Source of the DNA: an uncultured Chloroflexia bacterium
Lineage (GTDB): Bacteria; Chloroflexota; Limnocylindria; Limnocylindrales; CSP1-4
NCBI GenBank assembly: GCA_963813535.1
Contig: CAWEZH010000003.1
Coordinates: forward strand, 608,001 to 672,000
DNA length: 64,000 nt
Reading direction: 5' to 3'
Of the stretch, positions 1,947 through 51,473 are shown piece after piece; position 1 is the stretch's first letter; each line of letters opens with the position of its first letter. The notes beneath the pieces were generated by a model, which was given only the letters and a program-made list of their open reading frames with translations, searched no databases and had not been told where the DNA came from. The translations under genes and the position numbers were made by a program.

Positions 1947-2756
1947 GTGAATCCGGCCCTACGGCTCGAGCGGACTGGTCCCGGTGGCGTGGTCGCGCAT
2001 GTCACGCTCGCGCGCCCCGACGTCCACAACGCCTTCGACGCATCCCTGATCGCCGAGTTGCTGTCGACCTTCATGGCCCTGGCGCGCGAGGACGAGTCGG
2101 CCCTCCGCGCTGTGGTGATCGCCGGCGACGGGCCCTCGTTCTGTGCCGGAGCGGACATCGCGTGGATGCGCGCGGCTATGGCACTCGATGTCGAAGGCAA
2201 CGAGCAGGACGCGATGGCGATGGCCGACATGTTCGAGACCATCGATGTCTGTCCGGTGCCGGTCATCGCACGGGTCCACGGTGCGGCCCTGGGTGGCGGC
2301 ATGGGGCTGTGCGCGGTCGCCGACCTGGTCATCGCCGAGAGCGGCACGAGGTTCGGGTTCACCGAGACGCGGCTCGGCATCCTGCCCGCCGTCATCGCCC
2401 CGTTCGTGATCGCCAAGATCGGCGAGACAAACGCTCGCGCCCTGTTCCCCGGTGGTCGCCGGTTCGATGCCGTGCGGGCACAGCGGATCGGGCTCGTCCA
2501 CGAGCTCGCCGAGGGCGAGGACGCGCTCGATTCCGCCGTCGAGTCGGCGGTGAGCGATGTCCTTGCCGCGGGACCGACGGCCGCTCGCGCGGCGAAGGCG
2601 ATCATCCGCGAGGTCCGCGGCCTCGGCCACGGATCGGCGAAGTGGCACACGGCGCGGGTCATCGCACGCCAGCGCGTCAGCGACGAGGCCCGCGAAGGCT
2701 TTGCGGCCTTCGCCGAGAAACGCCAGCCGGCGTGGCAGTCAGAGGTCGATGACTGA
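1947..2756 (+). CDS. liuC: Enoyl-CoA hydratase family, likely methylglutaconyl-CoA hydratase
   Basis: 'FCAGADI', 'HGAALGGGMGL', 'ETRLGILP'; clustered with biotin carboxylase and HMG-CoA lyase. Confidence 0.85.
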   Translation: MNPALRLERTGPGGVVAHVTLARPDVHNAFDASLIAELLSTFMALAREDESALRAVVIAGDGPSFCAGADIAWMRAAMALDVEGNEQDAMAMADMFETIDVCPVPVIARVHGAALGGGMGLCAVADLVIAESGTRFGFTETRLGILPAVIAPFVIAKIGETNARALFPGGRRFDAVRAQRIGLVHELAEGEDALDSAVESAVSDVLAAGPTAARAAKAIIREVRGLGHGSAKWHTARVIARQRVSDEAREGFAAFAEKRQPAWQSEVDD

Positions 2757-3261
2757 GCCTCGTGTCGCGTGCGTCGGTTGCGGCGGGCTGGTGCCGGACA
2801 TCGAGGGACCGGTCCACCGCTACATGCTCGCCGCACCCGGGTGCTGGGCGGCCTACACCTCGCTCTTGGGTAGCGTGCTCGCCGGCCTGACCGTGCCGGA
2901 ACCGCACCTGTCGCTGATGGTCGATGCCTACGCCGTCCAGCATCCGGGTGTGCCCAACCCGCAGGCGACGCAGTCGGTGTGGGTCCATCTCATCACGCTC
3001 CACATGGCCCTGGAACGTGGCTGGCCGCCGGCGAGGCTGGTCCAGATCAGACGCGTCGGTGCCGATTCCGCGGACGGCTGGCCGTGGTTGGAACCACCTC
3101 GGTCGATGGGTGACGTGACGGCCATCGACGTCGCCTCGAGCATGCCCGACACCGCCCCTCATCTCGTCCGCGAGTGGACCGATGGCGCGTGGGCAGCGTG
3201 GGATCGCCACCAAAACGCCGTACGCCAGCGCGCGATGGACCTGGTCGCGTTGTTCGGCTAG
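2749..3261 (+). CDS. DUF5946-like protein
   Basis: 'CxGCG', 'PGCWAAY', 'VDAYAVQHP', 'SVWVHLITL' motifs; start overlaps the previous stop. Confidence 0.75.
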   Translation: MTEPRVACVGCGGLVPDIEGPVHRYMLAAPGCWAAYTSLLGSVLAGLTVPEPHLSLMVDAYAVQHPGVPNPQATQSVWVHLITLHMALERGWPPARLVQIRRVGADSADGWPWLEPPRSMGDVTAIDVASSMPDTAPHLVREWTDGAWAAWDRHQNAVRQRAMDLVALFG

Positions 3262-3310
3262 TCGTCCGCCGCTAGTCGTACGCCGCGCCGTATGCGACAC
3301 TCGCGACGGA

Positions 3311-5293
3311 ATGGCCGAAGAACTGAGCCCAAGCGAGGTCGCGCGTCGGCTCGGAACGTCCACCCGCTCCGTCCAGCGTTGGATCGCCAACGGTCGACTC
3401 CCGGCTCGGCGTGTTGGAGGGCGCTGGCGTGTCGCGTTTGACGCGTTTGACGCACCAGAACGCCCACAGGAACGCCCAGCCGCCATCGCGAACGTCTTCA
3501 TCGCCAATCGTGGCGAGATCGCGGACCGCATCGCCCGTACGTGCGAGCGGCTGGGGATCATCGCCGTCGCTCCGCCGATCAGCGGCGACAACGCCGTCGA
3601 CCTGCTTGACCCCACTGCGGTCATCGCCGCCGCACGCGCTGCCGGCGCTGACGCGGTCCATCCGGGCTTCGGCTTCCTTGCCGAGAACGCCGATTTCGCC
3701 CAGTCGGTGATCGACGCCGGCCTCCGGTGGATCGGGCCGCCACCCTCTGCGATCCGCGCGATGGGCGACAAAGCGGCCGCGCGTCGCCTCGCAGCACGTC
3801 TCGGCGTACCGACGCCGGCCGGCTACGACGACGCCGACCAGGCCGACGGGATGCTTGCGGCAGCGGCCGAGCGGATCGGCGTGCCGCTCCTGATCAAACC
3901 CGCCGCAGGCGGTGGTGGGAAGGGGATGCGCACGGTCCGCGACCTCGCGCGACTGCCGAGCGAGATCGCGGCCGCTCGGCGCGAGGCGCATGCCGCGTTC
4001 GGCGACGATCGCCTCATCCTGGAGCGGCTCGTCGAGGGCGCCCGGCACGTCGAGATCCAGGTCCTCTTCGACCGACACGGCCACGGCGTGCACCTCGGGG
4101 AGCGTGACTGCTCGATCCAGCGTCGGCATCAGAAGGTCCTCGAGGAGGCGGGTTCACCGGCCGTCGATGCCCCGCTCCGGGAACGGATGGGCGCGGCCGC
4201 GCTGGCCCTCGCGACAGAGGTCGGCTACGAAAGCGCAGGCACCTGCGAGTTCCTGCTCGACGATCGTGGCGCGTTCACGTTCCTCGAGATGAACACTCGC
4301 CTCCAGGTCGAGCACCCGGTCACGGAGTTCGTGACCGGCCGCGACCTCGTCGCCGACCAGATCCGGATCGCCGGCGGCGAGCCGCTCGGGTTCGACCAGG
4401 GGGACGTGCGACGCGACGGTCACGCGATCGAGGTCCGCCTCTACGCCGAGGATGCCGAGCAGGGGTTCCTGCCCGCGACCGGCGAGGTCCATCGACTGCG
4501 CTGGCCGACGGGCGAGGGCATCCGCGTCGACGCGGGTGTCATGGCGGGCGATGCGGTCGGTGGCCGCTTCGACCCGATGCTCGCGAAGATCATCGCGCAC
4601 GGCCACGACCGGGACGACGCGCTGGATCGCCTGACCCGGGCCCTCGACGACACGCTGATCCTTGGGCTGACGACCAACCTGCGTTTCCTCCGATGGCTCG
4701 TCCGGGAACCCGTCATCCGCGAGGGGGCCGCGCGAACCGACACCCTCGACCGGATCTGGCCGCCCGACGACTGGGCACGCCGGACGCGGATCCCGGAGGC
4801 GGCGTGGTCGGCCGCGACCCGCCTGCTGCTGGGTGGCCGGACATCGGGCGACGGATTCCGCCTCAATGCCGCCCCGACAGCCCGAGTCACGGCCGGGGAG
4901 GAGACACAGACGATCCGACTGGTACCGGGCAGCGCCACGCTGCGCTCCGCGAGCGTCGTCGTCGGCGACACCGTCCACCTCGACATCGCCGGGCGCAGCG
5001 TCGCCTTCCGGATCTCACCACCGCCGGATGTCGACCGGGCCGCCAGCGCCGCAGCGGCCGCGCACGGATCGGGCCCGGCCGAGCTCGTCGCGCCCATGCC
5101 GGGCCAGGTGCTCTCCATCGGCGCACCAGTCGGCACGATCGTCGAGGTCGGCGACACCGTCGTGGTCCTCGAAGCCATGAAGATGGAGCACGCCGTGACG
5201 GCTCCGCGGACGGGTGTCATCCGCGATGTCTTCGTGGGGGCCGGCGACCAGGTGGCCCGCGGCCAGCCGCTCGCGGTGGTCGAGCCCGCCTGA
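3311..5293 (+). CDS. liuD: Acyl-CoA carboxylase alpha subunit (BC + BCCP, methylcrotonyl-CoA carboxylase-like) with N-terminal HTH_17/excisionase-like domain
   Basis: 'IANRGEIA', 'HPGFGFLAEN', 'GGGGKGM', 'EMNTRLQVEHPVTE', biotinylation motif 'EAMKM'; N-terminus 'LSPSEVARRLGTSTRSVQRWIANGRLPARRVGGRWRV'. Confidence 0.88.
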   Translation: MAEELSPSEVARRLGTSTRSVQRWIANGRLPARRVGGRWRVAFDAFDAPERPQERPAAIANVFIANRGEIADRIARTCERLGIIAVAPPISGDNAVDLLDPTAVIAAARAAGADAVHPGFGFLAENADFAQSVIDAGLRWIGPPPSAIRAMGDKAAARRLAARLGVPTPAGYDDADQADGMLAAAAERIGVPLLIKPAAGGGGKGMRTVRDLARLPSEIAAARREAHAAFGDDRLILERLVEGARHVEIQVLFDRHGHGVHLGERDCSIQRRHQKVLEEAGSPAVDAPLRERMGAAALALATEVGYESAGTCEFLLDDRGAFTFLEMNTRLQVEHPVTEFVTGRDLVADQIRIAGGEPLGFDQGDVRRDGHAIEVRLYAEDAEQGFLPATGEVHRLRWPTGEGIRVDAGVMAGDAVGGRFDPMLAKIIAHGHDRDDALDRLTRALDDTLILGLTTNLRFLRWLVREPVIREGAARTDTLDRIWPPDDWARRTRIPEAAWSAATRLLLGGRTSGDGFRLNAAPTARVTAGEETQTIRLVPGSATLRSASVVVGDTVHLDIAGRSVAFRISPPPDVDRAASAAAAAHGSGPAELVAPMPGQVLSIGAPVGTIVEVGDTVVVLEAMKMEHAVTAPRTGVIRDVFVGAGDQVARGQPLAVVEPA

Positions 5294-5317
5294 GGGGCGA
5301 CGCGGTACGCTTCGGCC

Positions 5318-5533
5318 ATGGCGAACGACGACAAGGGACGACCGCCTTCCGGCGGCACCACGAAGCTCCCGAAGACCCGAGCCGAGCTCCTCGCCCTGCA
5401 CCGCGAGACACGGGCGCGTCGGAATGCAGCGGCACACGGTAGCCCGGAGCACGTGGAGGCGATCGACCTGATCGGTCGCATCGAGATCGAGATCGCCCGC
5501 ATCGAGCGGGCGATGGATCCGCCCGTCGTCTGA
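5318..5533 (+). CDS. Small hypothetical helical protein
   Basis: 71 aa with good codon bias; TACGCT -10 box 6 nt upstream. Confidence 0.7.
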   Translation: MANDDKGRPPSGGTTKLPKTRAELLALHRETRARRNAAAHGSPEHVEAIDLIGRIEIEIARIERAMDPPVV

Positions 5534-5543
5534 CCTCCGGCCG

Positions 5544-6488
5544 ATGACCCCGAGACCCGGCGATGGTCGCGTCCGGATCTATGAGGTCGGGCCCCGCGAC
5601 GGGCTCCAGAACGAGTCGGTCGCGATACCGACCGACGTCAAGCTCCGCTTCATCGAGCTGCTGGTCGACGCCGGTCTGCGGGAGATCGAGGCGACGTCAT
5701 TCGTCTCGCCGCGGGCGATCCCCCAGCTGGCCGACGCCGACGACCTCGTCGCACGGCTGCCGCTCCGGCCAGGCGTTCGCTATCCGGTCCTGATCCCGAA
5801 CCAGCGCGGCCTCGCGCGGGCGGAGGCCGCCGGCGTTGACGCCATCGCGGTCTTCACCGCGGCGACGGACGCGTTCACACAGCACAACATCGGGATGACG
5901 GTCGACGAGTCGCTCGCAGCCTTCCAGCCCGTCCTGGCCAGGGCCGACGAGCTCGGCTGGTGGCGCCGCGCCTACGTCTCGACCGCCTTCGGATGCCCCT
6001 ACACCGGGCGGGTGGACCCACGGGACGCGGTCGCGGTCGCCGTCCGCCTCATGGCGCTCGGCGTCGACGAGATCTGCTTCGGCGACACCATCGGTGTCGG
6101 TGTGCCGGATCAGGTCGCCGAGCTGGTGGGACTCGTCGAGGCCGCTGGCATCCCGCCCGCCCGACAGGCCTACCACTTCCACGACACGCGGGGAACCGCG
6201 CTCGCCAACGTCGCGATGGGACTCGCAGCGGGCGTACGGACGTTCGACGCGTCGACCGGCGGAACCGGCGGCTGCCCGTATGCGCCGGGCGCGGCCGGCA
6301 ACCTCGCGACCGAGGACCTGGTCTACCTGCTCGATGCATCCGGCTACGAGCACGGAGTCGCCCTCGACGGTGTCCTGACCGCGGCACGCTTCATCGCCGA
6401 TGCCCTGGGCAAGCCTCTCGCGACGAAAGTCGGTCAGGCGGGTGGCTGGGACGGGGCGACAGGCCACGCGACCGGCCGCGGGGACTGA
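5544..6488 (+). CDS. hmgL: Hydroxymethylglutaryl-CoA lyase
   Basis: 'EVGPRDGLQNE', 'HFHDT', 'GGCPYAPGAAGNLATED'. Confidence 0.95.
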   Translation: MTPRPGDGRVRIYEVGPRDGLQNESVAIPTDVKLRFIELLVDAGLREIEATSFVSPRAIPQLADADDLVARLPLRPGVRYPVLIPNQRGLARAEAAGVDAIAVFTAATDAFTQHNIGMTVDESLAAFQPVLARADELGWWRRAYVSTAFGCPYTGRVDPRDAVAVAVRLMALGVDEICFGDTIGVGVPDQVAELVGLVEAAGIPPARQAYHFHDTRGTALANVAMGLAAGVRTFDASTGGTGGCPYAPGAAGNLATEDLVYLLDASGYEHGVALDGVLTAARFIADALGKPLATKVGQAGGWDGATGHATGRGD

Positions 6489-8869: not shown

Positions 8870-9868
8870 ATGGCGCGGATCCTCGTGACCGGCGGGGCTG
8901 GGTACGTCGGGGCGGTCTCGGCCGAAGCGTTCCTGGCGGTGGGCCACGACGTCGTGGTGCTCGACGACCTCTCGACCGGGCATCGGGCGGCAGTCCCGGA
9001 TGGCGCGCGGCTGGTCGTCGGGGACTACACGGATCGGGCGACCGTCGCCACCGTGCTCGCAGAGGGGTCGATCGATGCGATCCTCCACTGCGCGGCGCTC
9101 TCGCTGGTCGGTGAGTCGCTCCAGGACCCGGCGCGGTACTTCGGGGACAACGTCGCGGGCGGGATCGCGATGCTCGATACGGCCCGGGCCGCAGGCGTCC
9201 AGCGCTTCGTGCTGTCCTCGACCGCCGCGGTCTACGGGGTACCCGACACCACGCCGGTCGACGAGGATGCCCCGCTGCGACCGATCAACCCGTACGGCGA
9301 GAGCAAGCGGACCTTCGAAGCCGTGCTCCAGTGGTACGGCCGGGCCTACGGCATGCGGAGCGTCTCGCTGCGGTACTTCAACGTGGCGGGTGCCACGGAG
9401 GCGATCGGCGAGGACCATGATCCCGAGACCCACCTCATCCCGGCCGTCCTCGCCGCCGCAGAGGCCGGACGTCCCGCGACGATCTTCGGCGGCGACTACC
9501 CGACCCGCGACGGGACGAACGTGCGCGACTACATCCACGTAGCTGACCTCGCGGACGCCCACCTCCGGGCGATCGAAGCGACGGCGCCCGGGGACGAGCG
9601 GATCGGCGATGGCCTCCTCGTGTGCAACCTCGGGAACGGCGGCGGCTTCACCAACCTCGAGGTCCTCGCGGCGGCCGAGACCGTCGTCGGGCGCCCGATC
9701 CCGCGTGAGGTCGGGCCTCGCAGACCAGGCGACCCGCCGACCCTGGTCGCCGCCGCGGACCGCGCGGCTGATGTCCTCGGCTGGCGACCACGACGACCCA
9801 GCCTCGACGAGATGGTCGGATCGGCGTGGGCCTGGCGCCGGTCGCACCCGGACGGCTACGCCGACTAG
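8870..9868 (+). CDS. galE: UDP-glucose 4-epimerase
   Basis: 'TGGAGYVG', 'SSTAAVYG', 'YGESK', 'LRYFNVAGA', 'RDYIHV'. Confidence 0.95.
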   Translation: MARILVTGGAGYVGAVSAEAFLAVGHDVVVLDDLSTGHRAAVPDGARLVVGDYTDRATVATVLAEGSIDAILHCAALSLVGESLQDPARYFGDNVAGGIAMLDTARAAGVQRFVLSSTAAVYGVPDTTPVDEDAPLRPINPYGESKRTFEAVLQWYGRAYGMRSVSLRYFNVAGATEAIGEDHDPETHLIPAVLAAAEAGRPATIFGGDYPTRDGTNVRDYIHVADLADAHLRAIEATAPGDERIGDGLLVCNLGNGGGFTNLEVLAAAETVVGRPIPREVGPRRPGDPPTLVAAADRAADVLGWRPRRPSLDEMVGSAWAWRRSHPDGYAD

Positions 9869-11244
9869 GTCTCCCGCGGCTCGATCGGTGCGCTGGCAGG
9901 GGCGAGTCGCTCTGGCGGCACGACCACGGCATCTGCCGCGAGCTCGTGACTACCCGACCAGTCGTCGCGCACCGGCCACACGAGCCACACTCCGATCAGC
10001 ATCGTGACCAGCAAGCTCAGGACCGCGACCTGGAACGCGCCGTTCCCGATCCGGTCGATGAGGAGGAACAGGATCAGCCCGTACAGCAGCGTGCCGATCA
10101 CCTGCGAGCCCTTCCCGACGAGGCCGTAGAGACCGAAGAACTCGCCGATCCTCTCGGGCGGCGACAGGCGGATCATGAGGACGCGGTCGGCGACCGTGAC
10201 GCCGCCAAGCCCCGATCCCAGGATCGCGCCGGCGACCAGGAACGGCGCCAGGCCGGCCGGCCCGAGGCCGATCGCGAACCCGCCGAGCAGGAGGCCGACA
10301 GCCCACGTCGCGAGCACGGTGATGAGCGTCCGCTTCGGACCGATCCGGTCGCAGAGCCAGCCCCACAGGAAGCTCATGGCGATCGCGACGATCGTCAGCC
10401 CCAGCAGGATCGTGTTGGCGTCGCGGACGGAGACGCCGAGCGCCTCGACCGTCACGACGCTCATCACCACGATCACCGTGTTGACCGCGTCGCTGTAGAA
10501 GAAGCGCCCGACGAGGAAACGCCCGAGTCCCGGGACAGCCCGAGCGTGCTCGATCGACGTCCGCAGTTGCCCGAAGGCGTCGACCACGTCGCGCGCCGTG
10601 ATGCGCGGCTCGTCCTTGGGCCGCGGCTCGCGGACCACCAGGAAGATCGGGATCGCGAATACGAGGAACAGCAATGCCGTGAGCCGGAAGCGGTCGGCGA
10701 CCGGGATGTCGAGCAGGAAGATGAGCAGTCCGACGACGACGGTCCCGCAGTAGCCGATGGCGGTGCCGATGCCGGACAGCCGGCCGCGCGACACCGGATA
10801 GGACACGGTCTTGAGCGTCGCGTCGTAATAGATGAGCGCGGCCTGGTACGAGAAGTTGGCGACGATGAAGAGCGCCAGTCCGATGAGCGGCGGCACGTTC
10901 GCGATGAAGAACGTCGCGACGATGCACTGCGCGGTGAAGAGGAGCAGGAACGGCATCCGTCGGCCGCCCCGGTCCGAGATGGCGCCGAGGATCGGCGACA
11001 CGAGCGCATTGATCCCGACGCTCAGCGCTACGGACACCGCCAGAAGGACGCCGCCGTCGCGACGGCCGAACTCGTCGTTCAGGTAGAGACCGATGGCCCC
11101 CGATACGACGGCGAAGCTGAAGATCGTGTTCGCGAAGTCGTACAGGGCCCACGAGGCCGGCACGATCGCGCGCCCACTCGGCGTCAGGGCCGCGAGGCCG
11201 CGGGCGCTGGGCGCTGGGCCGACGGACGGGGCGGCGCTGGCCAC
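9865..11244 (-). CDS. MFS transporter (UMF1/ATG22-like)
   Basis: 'SWALYDFANTIF', 'GAISDRGG', about 12 TM; GTG 6 nt after TATCAT. Confidence 0.9.
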   Translation of the reverse strand: MASAAPSVGPAPSARGLAALTPSGRAIVPASWALYDFANTIFSFAVVSGAIGLYLNDEFGRRDGGVLLAVSVALSVGINALVSPILGAISDRGGRRMPFLLLFTAQCIVATFFIANVPPLIGLALFIVANFSYQAALIYYDATLKTVSYPVSRGRLSGIGTAIGYCGTVVVGLLIFLLDIPVADRFRLTALLFLVFAIPIFLVVREPRPKDEPRITARDVVDAFGQLRTSIEHARAVPGLGRFLVGRFFYSDAVNTVIVVMSVVTVEALGVSVRDANTILLGLTIVAIAMSFLWGWLCDRIGPKRTLITVLATWAVGLLLGGFAIGLGPAGLAPFLVAGAILGSGLGGVTVADRVLMIRLSPPERIGEFFGLYGLVGKGSQVIGTLLYGLILFLLIDRIGNGAFQVAVLSLLVTMLIGVWLVWPVRDDWSGSHELAADAVVVPPERLAPASAPIEPRET

Positions 11245-50625: not shown

Positions 50626-51473
50626 GCCCGTGCCCTAAGCGCTTCGATCAGCTCGCCAAGCCCTCGCGGATCCGCGACCCAGCCGTCCGCACCGAGATCG
50701 AGTGCCACTCGTTCGTCCGGAACCGCGTTTCCGCCTACCAGGCGCGGAACCGACGGCCGTTCACGACGCGCGGCGGCCAGGAGGCGTCCGGCTGCGGGAC
50801 GACGCTCGATATCGACCACACTCACGACGACCGCTGCGAGAGGTCCCGCATCTCGCATCGCAGCGGCGAGTGACACGGTCGGCGTGTCGGGGCCCAGGTT
50901 GAGTACTTCATATCCGGCATCGGTCAGGATGTCGGCGAGCATCGCGACCCCCAGCCCATGACGCTCTCCGGGCGGCATCGCGACGATGACGACGCCTTTC
51001 TTGCGGCCTGGGTGCACGAACCGAGGGCCGAGACGTCCGATCAGCGTCGTGGCCACACTGCTCGCGAGATGCTCTTGGTCGACGGAGATGCCATCCGATG
51101 CCCACAGCGCCCCGATGGCGTGCAGCGACGGCGCGAGGACGCGGACGTAGATCTCGCCTGGCTCGAGGCCCGAGGCCATTGCAGCCTCGACGACCTGCCA
51201 GCTACCGGCGACGTCGCCGCTGAGCATCCGCGCCCGCAGCCGCTCCTGCCAGGTCGATACCCGGGGGTGGCTACCCCCGCGGCGGCGGCGACCACGGGCG
51301 GGCGTTGTCGTGGCGCCCGCGAGATCGGCAGGGTCGACCATCCACGTACCGCCGATCTTCCGGGCCGGCAGGATGCCCAGCCGGACGCGACGGTAGATCG
51401 TCATGTAGTGGACGCCCAGACGATCGGCCGCCTCGAGCAGGCTGAGATGGCCGGAAGGGTCCGACGGGGTCAA
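50622..51473 (-). CDS. CarH/LitR-like B12-binding photoreceptor regulator with HTH_17 DNA-binding domain
   Basis: HTH 'EAADRLGVHYMTIYRRVRLG', W-x9-EH ('WASDGISVDQEH'), B12 motif 'ERHGLG', 'LGPDTP'; TTG start overlaps the heliorhodopsin TGA. Confidence 0.88.
   Translation of the reverse strand: MTPSDPSGHLSLLEAADRLGVHYMTIYRRVRLGILPARKIGGTWMVDPADLAGATTTPARGRRRRGGSHPRVSTWQERLRARMLSGDVAGSWQVVEAAMASGLEPGEIYVRVLAPSLHAIGALWASDGISVDQEHLASSVATTLIGRLGPRFVHPGRKKGVVIVAMPPGERHGLGVAMLADILTDAGYEVLNLGPDTPTVSLAAAMRDAGPLAAVVVSVVDIERRPAAGRLLAAARRERPSVPRLVGGNAVPDERVALDLGADGWVADPRGLGELIEALRARA

Follow-up and report, generated by a model that had tools for sequence, protein, structure and literature searches.

The window (the whole stretch of 64,000 nucleotides analysed here) encodes a biotin carboxylase-BCCP polypeptide whose N-terminus is an Xis/BldC-like helix-turn-helix (HTH) domain, and this fusion is real, conserved and under selection. 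Comparison of HTH-bearing with HTH-less loci makes it somewhat probable that the HTH of this MCC-alpha-type subunit is a BldC-like autorepressor module acting at its own promoter. Only a small number of enzymes are also transcription factors, and every one of them has been instructive about the link between metabolism and gene expression; if the autorepressor reading is true, a biotin-dependent carboxylase would become a new member of this set, and a BldC/Xis-type monomeric winged helix would for the first time be seen as an enzyme-fused module. It would also provide a simple, testable case in which one subunit of a two-subunit enzyme limits its own synthesis, the genes of the two subunits being transcribed separately. 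The host lineage is widespread and uncultured, and occurs in soil and freshwater.

Results

The fusion gene and its distribution

Translation of the forward strand from 3311 to 5293 (Table 1) yields 660 aa uninterrupted by a stop. An earlier note, made from the letters of this DNA, had described a clean HTH_17 domain in the first ~45 aa, fused in frame to a BC-BCCP polypeptide that keeps EAMKM, and this description was borne out: the single frame carries HTH_17 at residues 5-48, a complete biotin carboxylase with Biotin_carb_N, CPSase_L_D2 and Biotin_carb_C in the expected order (Pfam), and the EAMKM motif within Biotin_lipoyl. The linker between HTH and carboxylase varies among homologues in both length and sequence (mean pairwise identity 0.21 in the family alignment, versus 0.73 for the HTH and 0.72 for the biotin carboxylase domain, so that the HTH is conserved as strongly as the catalytic domain), and pLDDT falls below 50 at residues 48-55 of the full-length model. 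Although the reading frame is open upstream to an ATG at 3182, the added part runs into the preceding gene, whose end is at 3261; ATG 3311 is taken as the start because homologues begin with M-(A/S)-(E/D)-E-L-S-P. No in-frame ATG, GTG or TTG occurs between 3311 and 3700, and the carboxylase therefore cannot be made without the HTH.

Table 1 Positions of the fusion gene, its parts, candidate sites and neighbours within the window
Feature	Position	Strand	Basis or remark
Enoyl-CoA hydratase (methylglutaconyl-CoA hydratase-like) gene	1947..2756	+	Pfam ECH_1
DUF5946 gene, directly upstream of fusion gene	2749..3261 (about)	+	Pfam PF19371, 94 bits
14-bp tandem duplication (GCTAGTCGTCCGCC / GCTAGTCGTACGCC), upstream of promoter, strain-specific	3257..3284	+	Sequence; run contigs
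-35-like hexamer TAGTCG, 17 bp upstream of GACACT (putative)	3273..3278	+	Read from upstream sequences
Candidate site O1: GCGACACTCGCGAC, two GCGAC(A) units 9 bp apart	3294..3307	+	Comparison of HTH-bearing loci
HTH-biotin carboxylase-BCCP gene (MCC alpha-like)	3311..5293	+	660 aa plus stop; translated ORF, Pfam
HTH_17 winged helix-turn-helix, Xis/BldC-like, residues 5-48	3323..3454	+	Pfam, PDB profile search, model, Foldseek
Candidate site O2: three 9-bp units (GCGTCAAAC GCGTCAAAC GCGAC)	3431..3453	-	Inside HTH codons 41-48
Variable linker, residues 49-60	3455..3490	+	Low identity among homologues, low pLDDT
Biotin carboxylase (ATP-grasp) part, N-terminal subdomain 19 residues shorter	3491..4750	+	Pfam, PDB sequence matches
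Biotinyl (BCCP) domain with EAMKM	5081..5278	+	Pfam Biotin_lipoyl, residues 591-656; sequence
71-aa ORF, no family match	5318..5533	+	Conserved between carboxylase and lyase genes in family f1
HMG-CoA lyase gene	5544..6488	+	NCBIfam NF004283, 360 bits versus cut-off 246; Pfam HMGL-like

An artefactual fusion, in which a lost stop, frameshift or assembly error joined a small regulator gene to a carboxylase gene, has a negligible probability. Such an origin would suit one relative (G074), in which the HTH and carboxylase parts lie in different frames, as well as the 23 of the 120 best database homologues that are called without an HTH. However, six of these 23 are mis-called starts, since their starts fall inside the HTH; the other 17 begin at or beyond the carboxylase start, or follow a short extension. 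Of the 28 HTH-bearing loci read, all but G074 (27 loci) have the in-frame architecture, as do hundreds of database clusters. Moreover, contigs from other, independent public runs cross the HTH-linker-carboxylase junction without a gap (X2 record 12, 3425-3692; X20 record 18, 3413-3666; X1 record 1, 3461-3611). Recurrence, the absent start codon of a separate carboxylase and the junction-bridging contigs together rule out an assembly or gene-call artefact for practical purposes.

Across genomes, the architecture recurs in two families (f1, which includes the window, and f4) of one Chloroflexota class, for which the sources name Candidatus Limnocylindrales; of the 401 genomes searched across the phylum, the remaining 360 gave no instance of it. 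PF12728 is present in 97 of the 120 best homologues. A search of 201 genomes of the class matched 97 other genomes at E <= 1e-150, and 87 of these align from query residue 7 or earlier, a count that includes four rows from unpublished genomes (G159, G087, G096 and G123) as well as G134, later found to be HTH-less. The HTH is shared at E <= 0.001 by 792 proteins (363-1155 aa), with carboxylase domains in all 120 listed. Among the 150 matches listed from a 50%-identity representative library, every hit that covers the HTH as well as the beginning of the carboxylase shares 49% identity or more with the first 130 residues of the query. These hits form a single coherent family, with no sign of a second, distant fusion among the 150. 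Relatives encoding the two parts separately, which the earlier note had weighed against its own reading, were encountered in marginal cases only: besides the frames of G074, the HTH is absent from two f1 genomes (G134 and G107) and from all 20 sampled f3 orthologues.

Carboxylase identity and gene neighbourhood

By sequence, the carboxylase is best matched in the PDB by 9yx0_D and MCC alpha 3u9s, at E 1e-134 or better, and M623, K624 and M625 of the biotinyl motif are invariant in the homologue alignment. A carboxyltransferase gene 3.4 kb upstream (G000:C3:606286-607920 = L009:10286-11920) scores 748 bits to MCC beta 3u9r; its scores to GCC beta 5ikl (448 bits) and PCC beta (270 bits) are lower. 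Together with the HMG-CoA lyase and ECH neighbours, the BC-BCCP domains and this MCC-beta-type partner support, at the level of sequence, the MCC alpha identity given in the earlier note and a setting in a liu-like cluster. The best NCBIfam models of the hydratase gene are PRK07468 and PRK05674, each under its cut-off. The placement of the fusion gene between the hydratase-like and HMG-CoA lyase genes needs amending: both do flank it, but the DUF5946 gene and the 71-aa ORF intervene. The latter gave no Pfam match at E <= 1, and its identification as a known carboxylase epsilon subunit was rejected. The carboxyltransferase and hydratase genes both lie upstream of the fusion-gene promoter. The HMG-CoA lyase gene is probably co-transcribed with the fusion gene, the intervening gaps being 24 and 10 nt.

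The HTH domain belongs to the Xis/BldC type

The full protein matches HTH_17 with an E-value of 7e-12 and 45.8 bits (cut-off 27), and the domain searched alone scores 51 bits against the same cut-off; the NCBIfam model TIGR01764 'excise' is matched at 41.3 bits versus a cut-off of 28.8, while the Pfam MerR score of 22-27 bits is under the cut-off of 28.2. Profile comparison against the PDB retrieved Pukovnik Xis (1.7e-8), RacA (3.9e-6) and BldC (1.7e-4). The predicted secondary structure is H-H-E-E-H (H7-14, H18-26, E32-35, E38-42, H43-47), with pLDDT of 81-91 over residues 1-40. The best fold matches of the HTH model are Xis, BldC, RacA and RdfS, led in the Foldseek search of a 58-residue model by 4j2n and 6ama/6amk (TM 0.70-0.79; all E-values above 0.001). 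As modelled, the fold comprises alpha1-alpha2-beta hairpin-alpha3 without the MerR dimerisation helix and is followed by a low-confidence linker; the C-terminal coiled-coil/effector domain of classical MerR proteins is absent, the HTH being followed by the 12-residue variable linker and then the carboxylase.

The invariant HTH residues are P7, A11, R19, Q22, R23, W24, I25, G28, R34, G36 and R38. In the HMMER alignment, with a numbering offset inferred from Trp31, R19, R23, W24, G36 and R38 align with BldC Lys26, Arg30, Trp31, Gly44 and His46, which the BldC study assigns to DNA contacts or to the head-tail interface (PMC5859096). The predicted fold and the conserved basic residues point to DNA binding.

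A repeated motif overlaps the predicted fusion-gene promoter

All 28 HTH-bearing loci of f1 and f4 match GCGACA-N3-GCGAC at no fewer than 12 of its 14 positions, with the match ending 0-5 nt ahead of the start codon; the motif occurs in none of 22 HTH-less orthologues by position weight matrix (PWM), their best score being at most 6.4 versus a training minimum of 21. In these sequences the 9-bp-spaced GCGACA units thus co-occur with the HTH, a pattern that may reflect as little as a single gain with two or three losses, given that related genomes do not count as independent cases. The exact O1 pattern occurs once in the genome (3.28 Mb). Among 17 genome matches to GCGACA-N3-GCGAC, O1 alone falls in sequence that lacks coding periodicity, which led us to reject a wider regulon in this genome, and the PWM and motif scan saw no candidate sites at the carboxyltransferase, hydratase or lyase genes.

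O1 overlaps a TG-extended -10 (TG 3293-3294, GACACT 3296-3301), and 3 nt separate it from the ATG; many relatives have TTGCNN at the -35-like position, at the same distance. A generic sigma-70 promoter and terminator scan of 2700-5700 returned no match. From this layout we infer a leaderless-type promoter, with the mRNA start point predicted at or almost at the ATG. If so, little or none of the conserved element, which ends 0-5 nt before the start codon at the -10 position, would be transcribed, and an RNA element upstream of the start was rejected on that account. The left O1 unit belongs to a -10 variant, TGcGACA(A/C)T, that also stands before other leaderless-type genes of the genome and before the HTH-less orthologues of f3 genus g20 (GCGACAATCTCCGCACATG), and part of the O1 conservation is therefore plain promoter conservation. 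As a control, the leaderless-type promoters of typA and polA were compared in the same 27 genomes: the -10 is conserved together with a few bases upstream of it, but the 6-9 nt that separate the -10 from the start codon are not. GACACT is not enriched before gene starts, where 16 of its 408 occurrences lie, versus 34 of 73 for TACACT. The O1 units are direct repeats over the -10/start region, unlike the palindromic operator, within a long promoter spacer, of classical MerR regulators such as LiuR.

Rare codons hold a second candidate site within the HTH coding sequence

The three-unit O2 pattern likewise occurs once in the 3.28 Mb genome, and in the window's family f1 its units are inverted relative to O1, about 135 bp downstream. 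A PWM site at +119/+128 is present in 14 of the 28 loci, the others being under threshold; O2 is absent from f4, and it overlaps conserved residues. Among 24 f1 loci, A or T occupies the third codon position in 96% at codon 40, 100% at codon 43 and 83% at codon 46, versus 12.5% genome-wide, and at codon 43 this holds despite a residue that varies among F, S, N and T. The codons used at O2 are rare in the genome (TTT, 2% of Phe; ATT, 0.7% of Ile; TTA, 0.1% of Leu). On this codon evidence, the candidate O2 units are held by very rare codons within the HTH coding sequence. A reading of O2 as an antisense promoter was rejected, its hexamers being without the -10 key bases.

Comparison with known systems

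In BirA, PutA and NadR, the coupling of catalysis to DNA binding has been shown by experiment. These trigger enzymes likewise combine an enzyme with a DNA-binding domain on a single polypeptide, and the fusion gene resembles them in an operator-like site at a same-pathway promoter, here suggested by comparative data; they differ in enzyme class and HTH family, although the N-terminal wHTH of BirA is a weak fold match to the fusion HTH (1hxd). LiuR, a MerR-family regulator of liu genes in Proteobacteria, also links a MerR-superfamily HTH to leucine catabolic genes, but it is a protein in its own right, dimeric and equipped with a coiled-coil and an effector part, neither of which the fusion HTH has. 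Pukovnik Xis has no enzyme part; it serves a phage as recombination directionality factor and binds tandem sites in attP. It is the closest solved relative by both sequence and fold (mycobacteriophage Gp37, PDB 4j2n; TM 0.74-0.79, 38% identity). BldC, a Streptomyces developmental regulator (PDB 6ama, 6amk), has the same MerR-like winged helix without dimerisation helix (TM 0.70-0.78, rmsd 1.1-1.5 A over 46-49 columns). According to PMC5859096, BldC protomers each occupy a 9-bp direct repeat, head to tail, a spacing identical to that of the GCGACA units. BldC, however, is free-standing and 68 residues long, and has a wide regulon and AT-rich repeats (AATTXXXXC), whereas the fusion HTH is the N-terminus of a 660-aa enzyme subunit, with GC-rich units at its own gene only. 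At the level of titles and abstracts, the literature yielded no report of a biotin-dependent carboxylase as a trigger enzyme or of the fusion itself; passages of PMC12776079 concern an unrelated structural motif in a carboxylase beta subunit.

Discussion

In the model that we infer, for DNA binding, repression and the transcription start as for any link to enzyme state, a flexible linker would tie the small Xis/BldC-type winged-helix domain to the N-terminus of the MCC alpha subunit, and this domain would bind the 9-bp-spaced GCGACA units head to tail, like BldC and phage Xis. The two units of O1 would cover the -10 hexamer and the start point of the gene's own promoter, leaving an mRNA leader that is nil or nearly nil, and in the window's family the three inverted units of O2 would add sites within the HTH coding sequence. 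Occupied O1 and O2 would block RNA polymerase, so that the alpha subunit limits its own synthesis, and repression would probably extend to the co-oriented small ORF and HMG-CoA lyase. The earlier suggestion that the enzyme regulates its own operon according to biotinylation or substrate state thus survives in part: conserved candidate sites lie on its own promoter and fit an enzyme-borne regulator of the BirA/PutA kind, the analogy then drawn, but control of the whole liu cluster is unsupported, the full motif being at the fusion gene only, and so is biotinylation or substrate state as the signal.

Two other roles of the HTH have to be set against autorepression. It may no longer bind DNA and instead serve the protein, replacing a lost part of the biotin carboxylase N-subdomain or acting in assembly or partner contact, with the upstream DNA merely a promoter. 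This is fairly unlikely, although the N-subdomain has undergone stepwise deletions in the HTH-bearing lineage (the ANRGE-to-HPG distance is 74 residues in the HTH-less f3, 65 in f4 and 55 in f1) and the left half of O1 is the recurrent -10 variant. A docked structural element would not be expected on a linker that is variable and modelled as disordered, G134 retains the 55-residue form though HTH-less, the residues matching the BldC DNA contacts are invariant, and the rare-codon pattern of O2 is unexplained by promoter function.

Alternatively, the HTH may bind DNA otherwise, by activating the promoter, acting on other targets or tethering the carboxylase to DNA, which we regard as unlikely. 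The fold and conserved basic residues would suit any DNA-binding role, MerR-type domains are often activators, and RacA, a close profile match, is a chromosome anchor. However, O1 sits on the -10 and start point, neither in the promoter spacer nor upstream. Further high-scoring PWM sites exist in the genome, for example C3:815826 at 24.2, and are candidates, conservation aside; against other targets stand the uniqueness of the exact O1 and three-unit patterns to the fusion gene and the form of the remaining PWM matches, GCGACGATCGCGAC, which is common in GC-rich coding sequence.

A bolder version, which we consider quite unlikely, makes the assembled carboxylase itself the regulator: tethered HTHs would bridge the inverted O1 and O2 and loop the promoter, and beta-subunit assembly or a substrate-driven oligomeric change would set HTH access. 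The usual particle form of such a carboxylase is alpha6-beta6, and this particle, if formed, would carry six tethered BldC-like domains. Were the looped arrangement true, it would be the first biotin-dependent carboxylase serving as a transcription factor, and transcription would be under direct feedback from leucine-catabolic flux or from the alpha/beta balance.

Autorepression at O1, if true, would also mark a class of leaderless-type promoters in the host Chloroflexota lineage. Upstream of the promoter, one copy of the 14-bp tandem duplication is missing in the X3 and X20 run contigs (14 letters left out at 3257), and the second copy contains the -35-like hexamer.

A helix-turn-helix domain in frame with a carboxylase subunit

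The fusion gene forms a single open frame whose 660-aa product contains five Pfam domains: HTH_17, three biotin carboxylase (BC) domains and a biotinyl (BCCP) domain, with the EAMKM motif kept. This confirms the earlier note's reading of a helix-turn-helix (HTH) joined in frame to a BC-BCCP polypeptide. The frame extends upstream of the ATG at 3311 as far as an ATG at 3182; a start there would overlap the DUF5946 gene, and the homologues' starts correspond to the ATG at 3311. Because the first in-frame ATG, GTG or TTG after 3311 lies only beyond 3700, the carboxylase is not translatable alone. Of the solved proteins, those nearest in sequence are the 'biotin carboxylase' chain 9yx0_D and the alpha subunits of methylcrotonyl-CoA carboxylase (MCC) 3u9s and 8j4z. 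The carboxyltransferase (CT) gene just upstream of the window scores 748 bits against MCC beta 3u9r, 448 against geranyl-CoA carboxylase beta and about 270 against PCC beta. Sequence and gene context give good support to the assignment of the fusion protein as a putative MCC alpha subunit. No description of an HTH-carboxylase fusion was found in literature listings and abstracts, and 'helix-turn-helix' as used in PMC12776079 denotes a structural motif within the beta subunit; some family members are already annotated as 'excisionase family DNA binding protein' by public pipelines.

Features of the fusion gene and its surroundings (window positions unless otherwise stated)
Feature	Position	Strand	Remark
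Small ORF	L009 (window's upstream region) 9806-10270	-	signal-peptide-like start
CT	L009:10286-11920		first in gene order
205-aa unknown	14-556		gene start upstream of window
MOSC	592-1356
Enoyl-CoA hydratase	1947-2756
DUF5946	about 2749-3261
14-bp tandem duplication	3257-3284		second copy with -35-like hexamer
O1	3294-3307		candidate site
HTH-BC-BCCP	3311-5293	+	uninterrupted frame, 660 codons
HTH_17	residues 5-48		Pfam 45.8 bits, cut-off 27
O2	3431-3453	-	GCGTCAAAC-GCGTCAAAC-GCGAC, inside codons 41-48
BC N-subdomain	3491-3660		stepwise deletion
Biotinyl domain	residues 591-656		Pfam
71-aa ORF	5318-5533	+	Pfam: no match
HMG-CoA lyase	5544-6488		NCBIfam 360 bits, cut-off 246
Second HTH match	51336-51446	-	within a 326-codon open frame
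Linker break in G074	L030 3303-3518	-	HTH and carboxylase out of frame

Distribution of the fusion

HTH and carboxylase recur together, both in database homologues and in genomes of the window's family (f1) and a second family (f4). Of the 120 closest homologues in the database, at 70-100% identity, 97 contain PF12728. The other 23, judged from their protein records, comprise six that start inside the HTH, and are therefore mis-called starts, 11 that start at or inside the carboxylase start, and six with a short non-HTH extension. Residues 1-52 scored alone matched 792 database proteins (363-1155 aa, E <= 0.001), whose source names point to Candidatus Limnocylindrales or Chloroflexi; each of the best 120 of these also has PF02786 and/or PF00289 from the carboxylase, a few being truncated or having other domains further on (for example, P0137).

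Among 201 genomes of the class, 97 besides the window's own gave matches at E <= 1e-150, the matches lying in f1 and f4, and the alignment began at query residue 7 or earlier in 87 of them, a count that includes G134, which lacks the HTH by tblastn; four rows of this search are unpublished genomes (G159, G087, G096 and G123). G107 is a further f1 genome without the HTH. In family f3, the orthologues (45-50% identity) begin with the carboxylase. In a phylum sample of 401 genomes searched with residues 1-130 at E <= 1e-12, matches were found in 9 of 23 f1 and 16 of 16 f4 genomes, a single match in family f9 covered the carboxylase part only, and the other families gave none. The alternative of separate ORFs in relatives may hold for one genome, G074, where the two parts lie in different frames with the break within the linker. 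Contigs of other public runs span the HTH-linker-carboxylase junction without gaps. Since the G074 assembly comprises just seven or so contigs, the frame difference may be either an indel error or a true split.

An excisionase- and BldC-like domain on a variable linker

Mean pairwise identity is 0.73 for the HTH, 0.72 for the catalytic domain and 0.21 for the 12-residue linker, whose length varies among homologues. A profile of 27 HTHs matched Pukovnik Xis (E 1.7e-8), RacA (E 3.9e-6) and BldC (E 1.7e-4). AlphaFold models residues 1-58 as a helix-helix-hairpin-helix (pLDDT 81-91 across residues 1-40), and the best Foldseek matches of this model were Xis (TM 0.74-0.79) and DNA-bound BldC (TM 0.70-0.78, rmsd 1.1-1.5 A), every E-value being above 0.001, which is to be expected of such a short model. 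The full-length model has a mean pLDDT of 88 and values under 50 at residues 48-55, consistent with a flexible tether. Residues R19, R23, W24, G36 and R38, all invariant, align with BldC Lys26, Arg30, Trp31, Gly44 and His46, for which PMC5859096 describes base contacts, a minor-groove contact and the head-tail interface; this mapping combines the alignment with that paper, the numbering offset being inferred from Trp31.

The sole other HTH match in the genome (E 3e-4) shows 46% identity over residues 5-41. In a representative library, the HTH matched P0221, P0270, P0287 and P0307 (254-479 aa) in four to six separate stretches; these look like tandem wHTH arrays within a single polypeptide and may be the covalent counterpart of head-to-tail multimers.

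A candidate site at the promoter

All 28 HTH-bearing loci (the window and 27 genomes of f1 and f4) match the pattern GCGACA(A/C/G)TCGCG(A/C)C (site O1) at no fewer than 12 of its 14 positions, and the match ends 0-5 nt ahead of the start codon; the most degenerate copy (12/14) is that of G074. The window's 3.28-Mb genome has a single exact match to the pattern. For 22 HTH-less orthologues (two f1, 20 f3), the top PWM score within 400 nt upstream was at most 6.4, as compared with a training minimum of 21.

Part of this conservation has a simpler source. A long-ORF start follows TACACT within 5-9 nt in 34 of 73 cases and TACAAT in 5 of 13 cases in this genome (control hexamers, 2-6%), and these hexamers form a lineage-specific -10 consensus. 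Leaderless-type starts are common here, 88 being listed with TACACT/TACAAT 6-9 nt ahead of start codons. The fusion gene reads TG-c-GACACT-cgcgacgga-ATG (hexamer from 3296), a predicted extended -10 variant at leaderless distance, with TTGCNN 17 bp upstream in many relatives. On this reading O1 would cover both -10 and start point. Its left unit, GCGACA(A/C)T, is a recurrent -10 variant that precedes typA and several other genes in the window's genome as well as HTH-less orthologues of the f3 genus g20; GACACT alone is unenriched ahead of starts (16/408). Judged from sequence, O1 conservation is thus partly plain promoter conservation. The promoters used as controls, those of typA and polA in the 27 genomes, retain the -10 with a few bases upstream of it, but not the 6-9 nt from there to the start codon. 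At the fusion gene, CGCG(A/C)C in this interval is kept across f1 and f4, and it is this part of O1 that needs an extra explanation. In most cases the f3 carboxylase gene directly adjoins the hydratase gene or overlaps it, and that of f1 and f4 has its own promoter.

Just upstream of the promoter lies the 14-bp tandem duplication; contigs of two other runs hold a single copy, so the duplication is strain-specific.

A second candidate site within the HTH coding sequence

The three-unit pattern of the inverted candidate site O2 also occurs once in the genome. Half of the loci (14 of 28) have a PWM site at +119 or +128, and three more have an inverted one at -114 to -121 instead; the four f4 loci have no O2-type PWM site. 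Across 24 f1 loci, the third base is A/T in 96% at codon 40 (CGT), 100% at codon 43, where the residue varies (F, S, N, T), and 83% at codon 46 (genome-wide, 12.5%). Codons 41-45 read GTC GCG NNT GAC GCG in 20 of the 24, as taken from the codon table, and the codons used are rare in the genome (TTT, 2% of Phe; ATT, 0.7% of Ile; TTA, 0.1% of Leu). They show that the DNA is under constraint, not the protein alone. The units are spaced 9 bp apart, the same length of DNA that each BldC protomer occupies in a head-to-tail array.

Proposed autoregulation

The BldC/Xis-like domain on the alpha subunit would bind the repeated units and, once bound, would occlude its own leaderless-type promoter at the -10 and start, limiting its own synthesis. 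The 71-aa ORF and the lyase would probably be limited along with it, since the gaps are only 24 and 10 nt. The gene for the beta subunit belongs to a separate transcription unit, 3.4 kb upstream, which makes balancing of alpha against beta a plausible, though speculative, purpose; a role for substrate or biotinylation in the regulation is likewise speculation.

Catalytic part and neighboring genes

The BC N-subdomain underwent a stepwise deletion relative to f3 and solved carboxylases, of nine residues in f4 and then 19 in f1 (ANRGE-to-HPG distance 74 in HTH-less f3, 65 in f4, 55 in f1). G134 keeps the 55-residue form without the HTH; therefore, the HTH is not needed to offset the deletion. 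Elsewhere the genome has two more BC paralogues and two more CT loci. Neither the 15 kb ahead of the window nor its first 12 kb showed an isovaleryl-CoA dehydrogenase gene. The hydratase and HMG-CoA lyase genes said to flank the fusion are both present, but DUF5946 and the 71-aa ORF intervene. The latter might be a small accessory subunit; by tblastn, 22 of the 24 f1 loci with the HTH have it in the same position, and the four f4 loci gave no match. Upstream of the window, the small ORF lies between the CT gene and a weak MarR-like gene (MarR_2, 23.6 bits, under the cut-off of 27).
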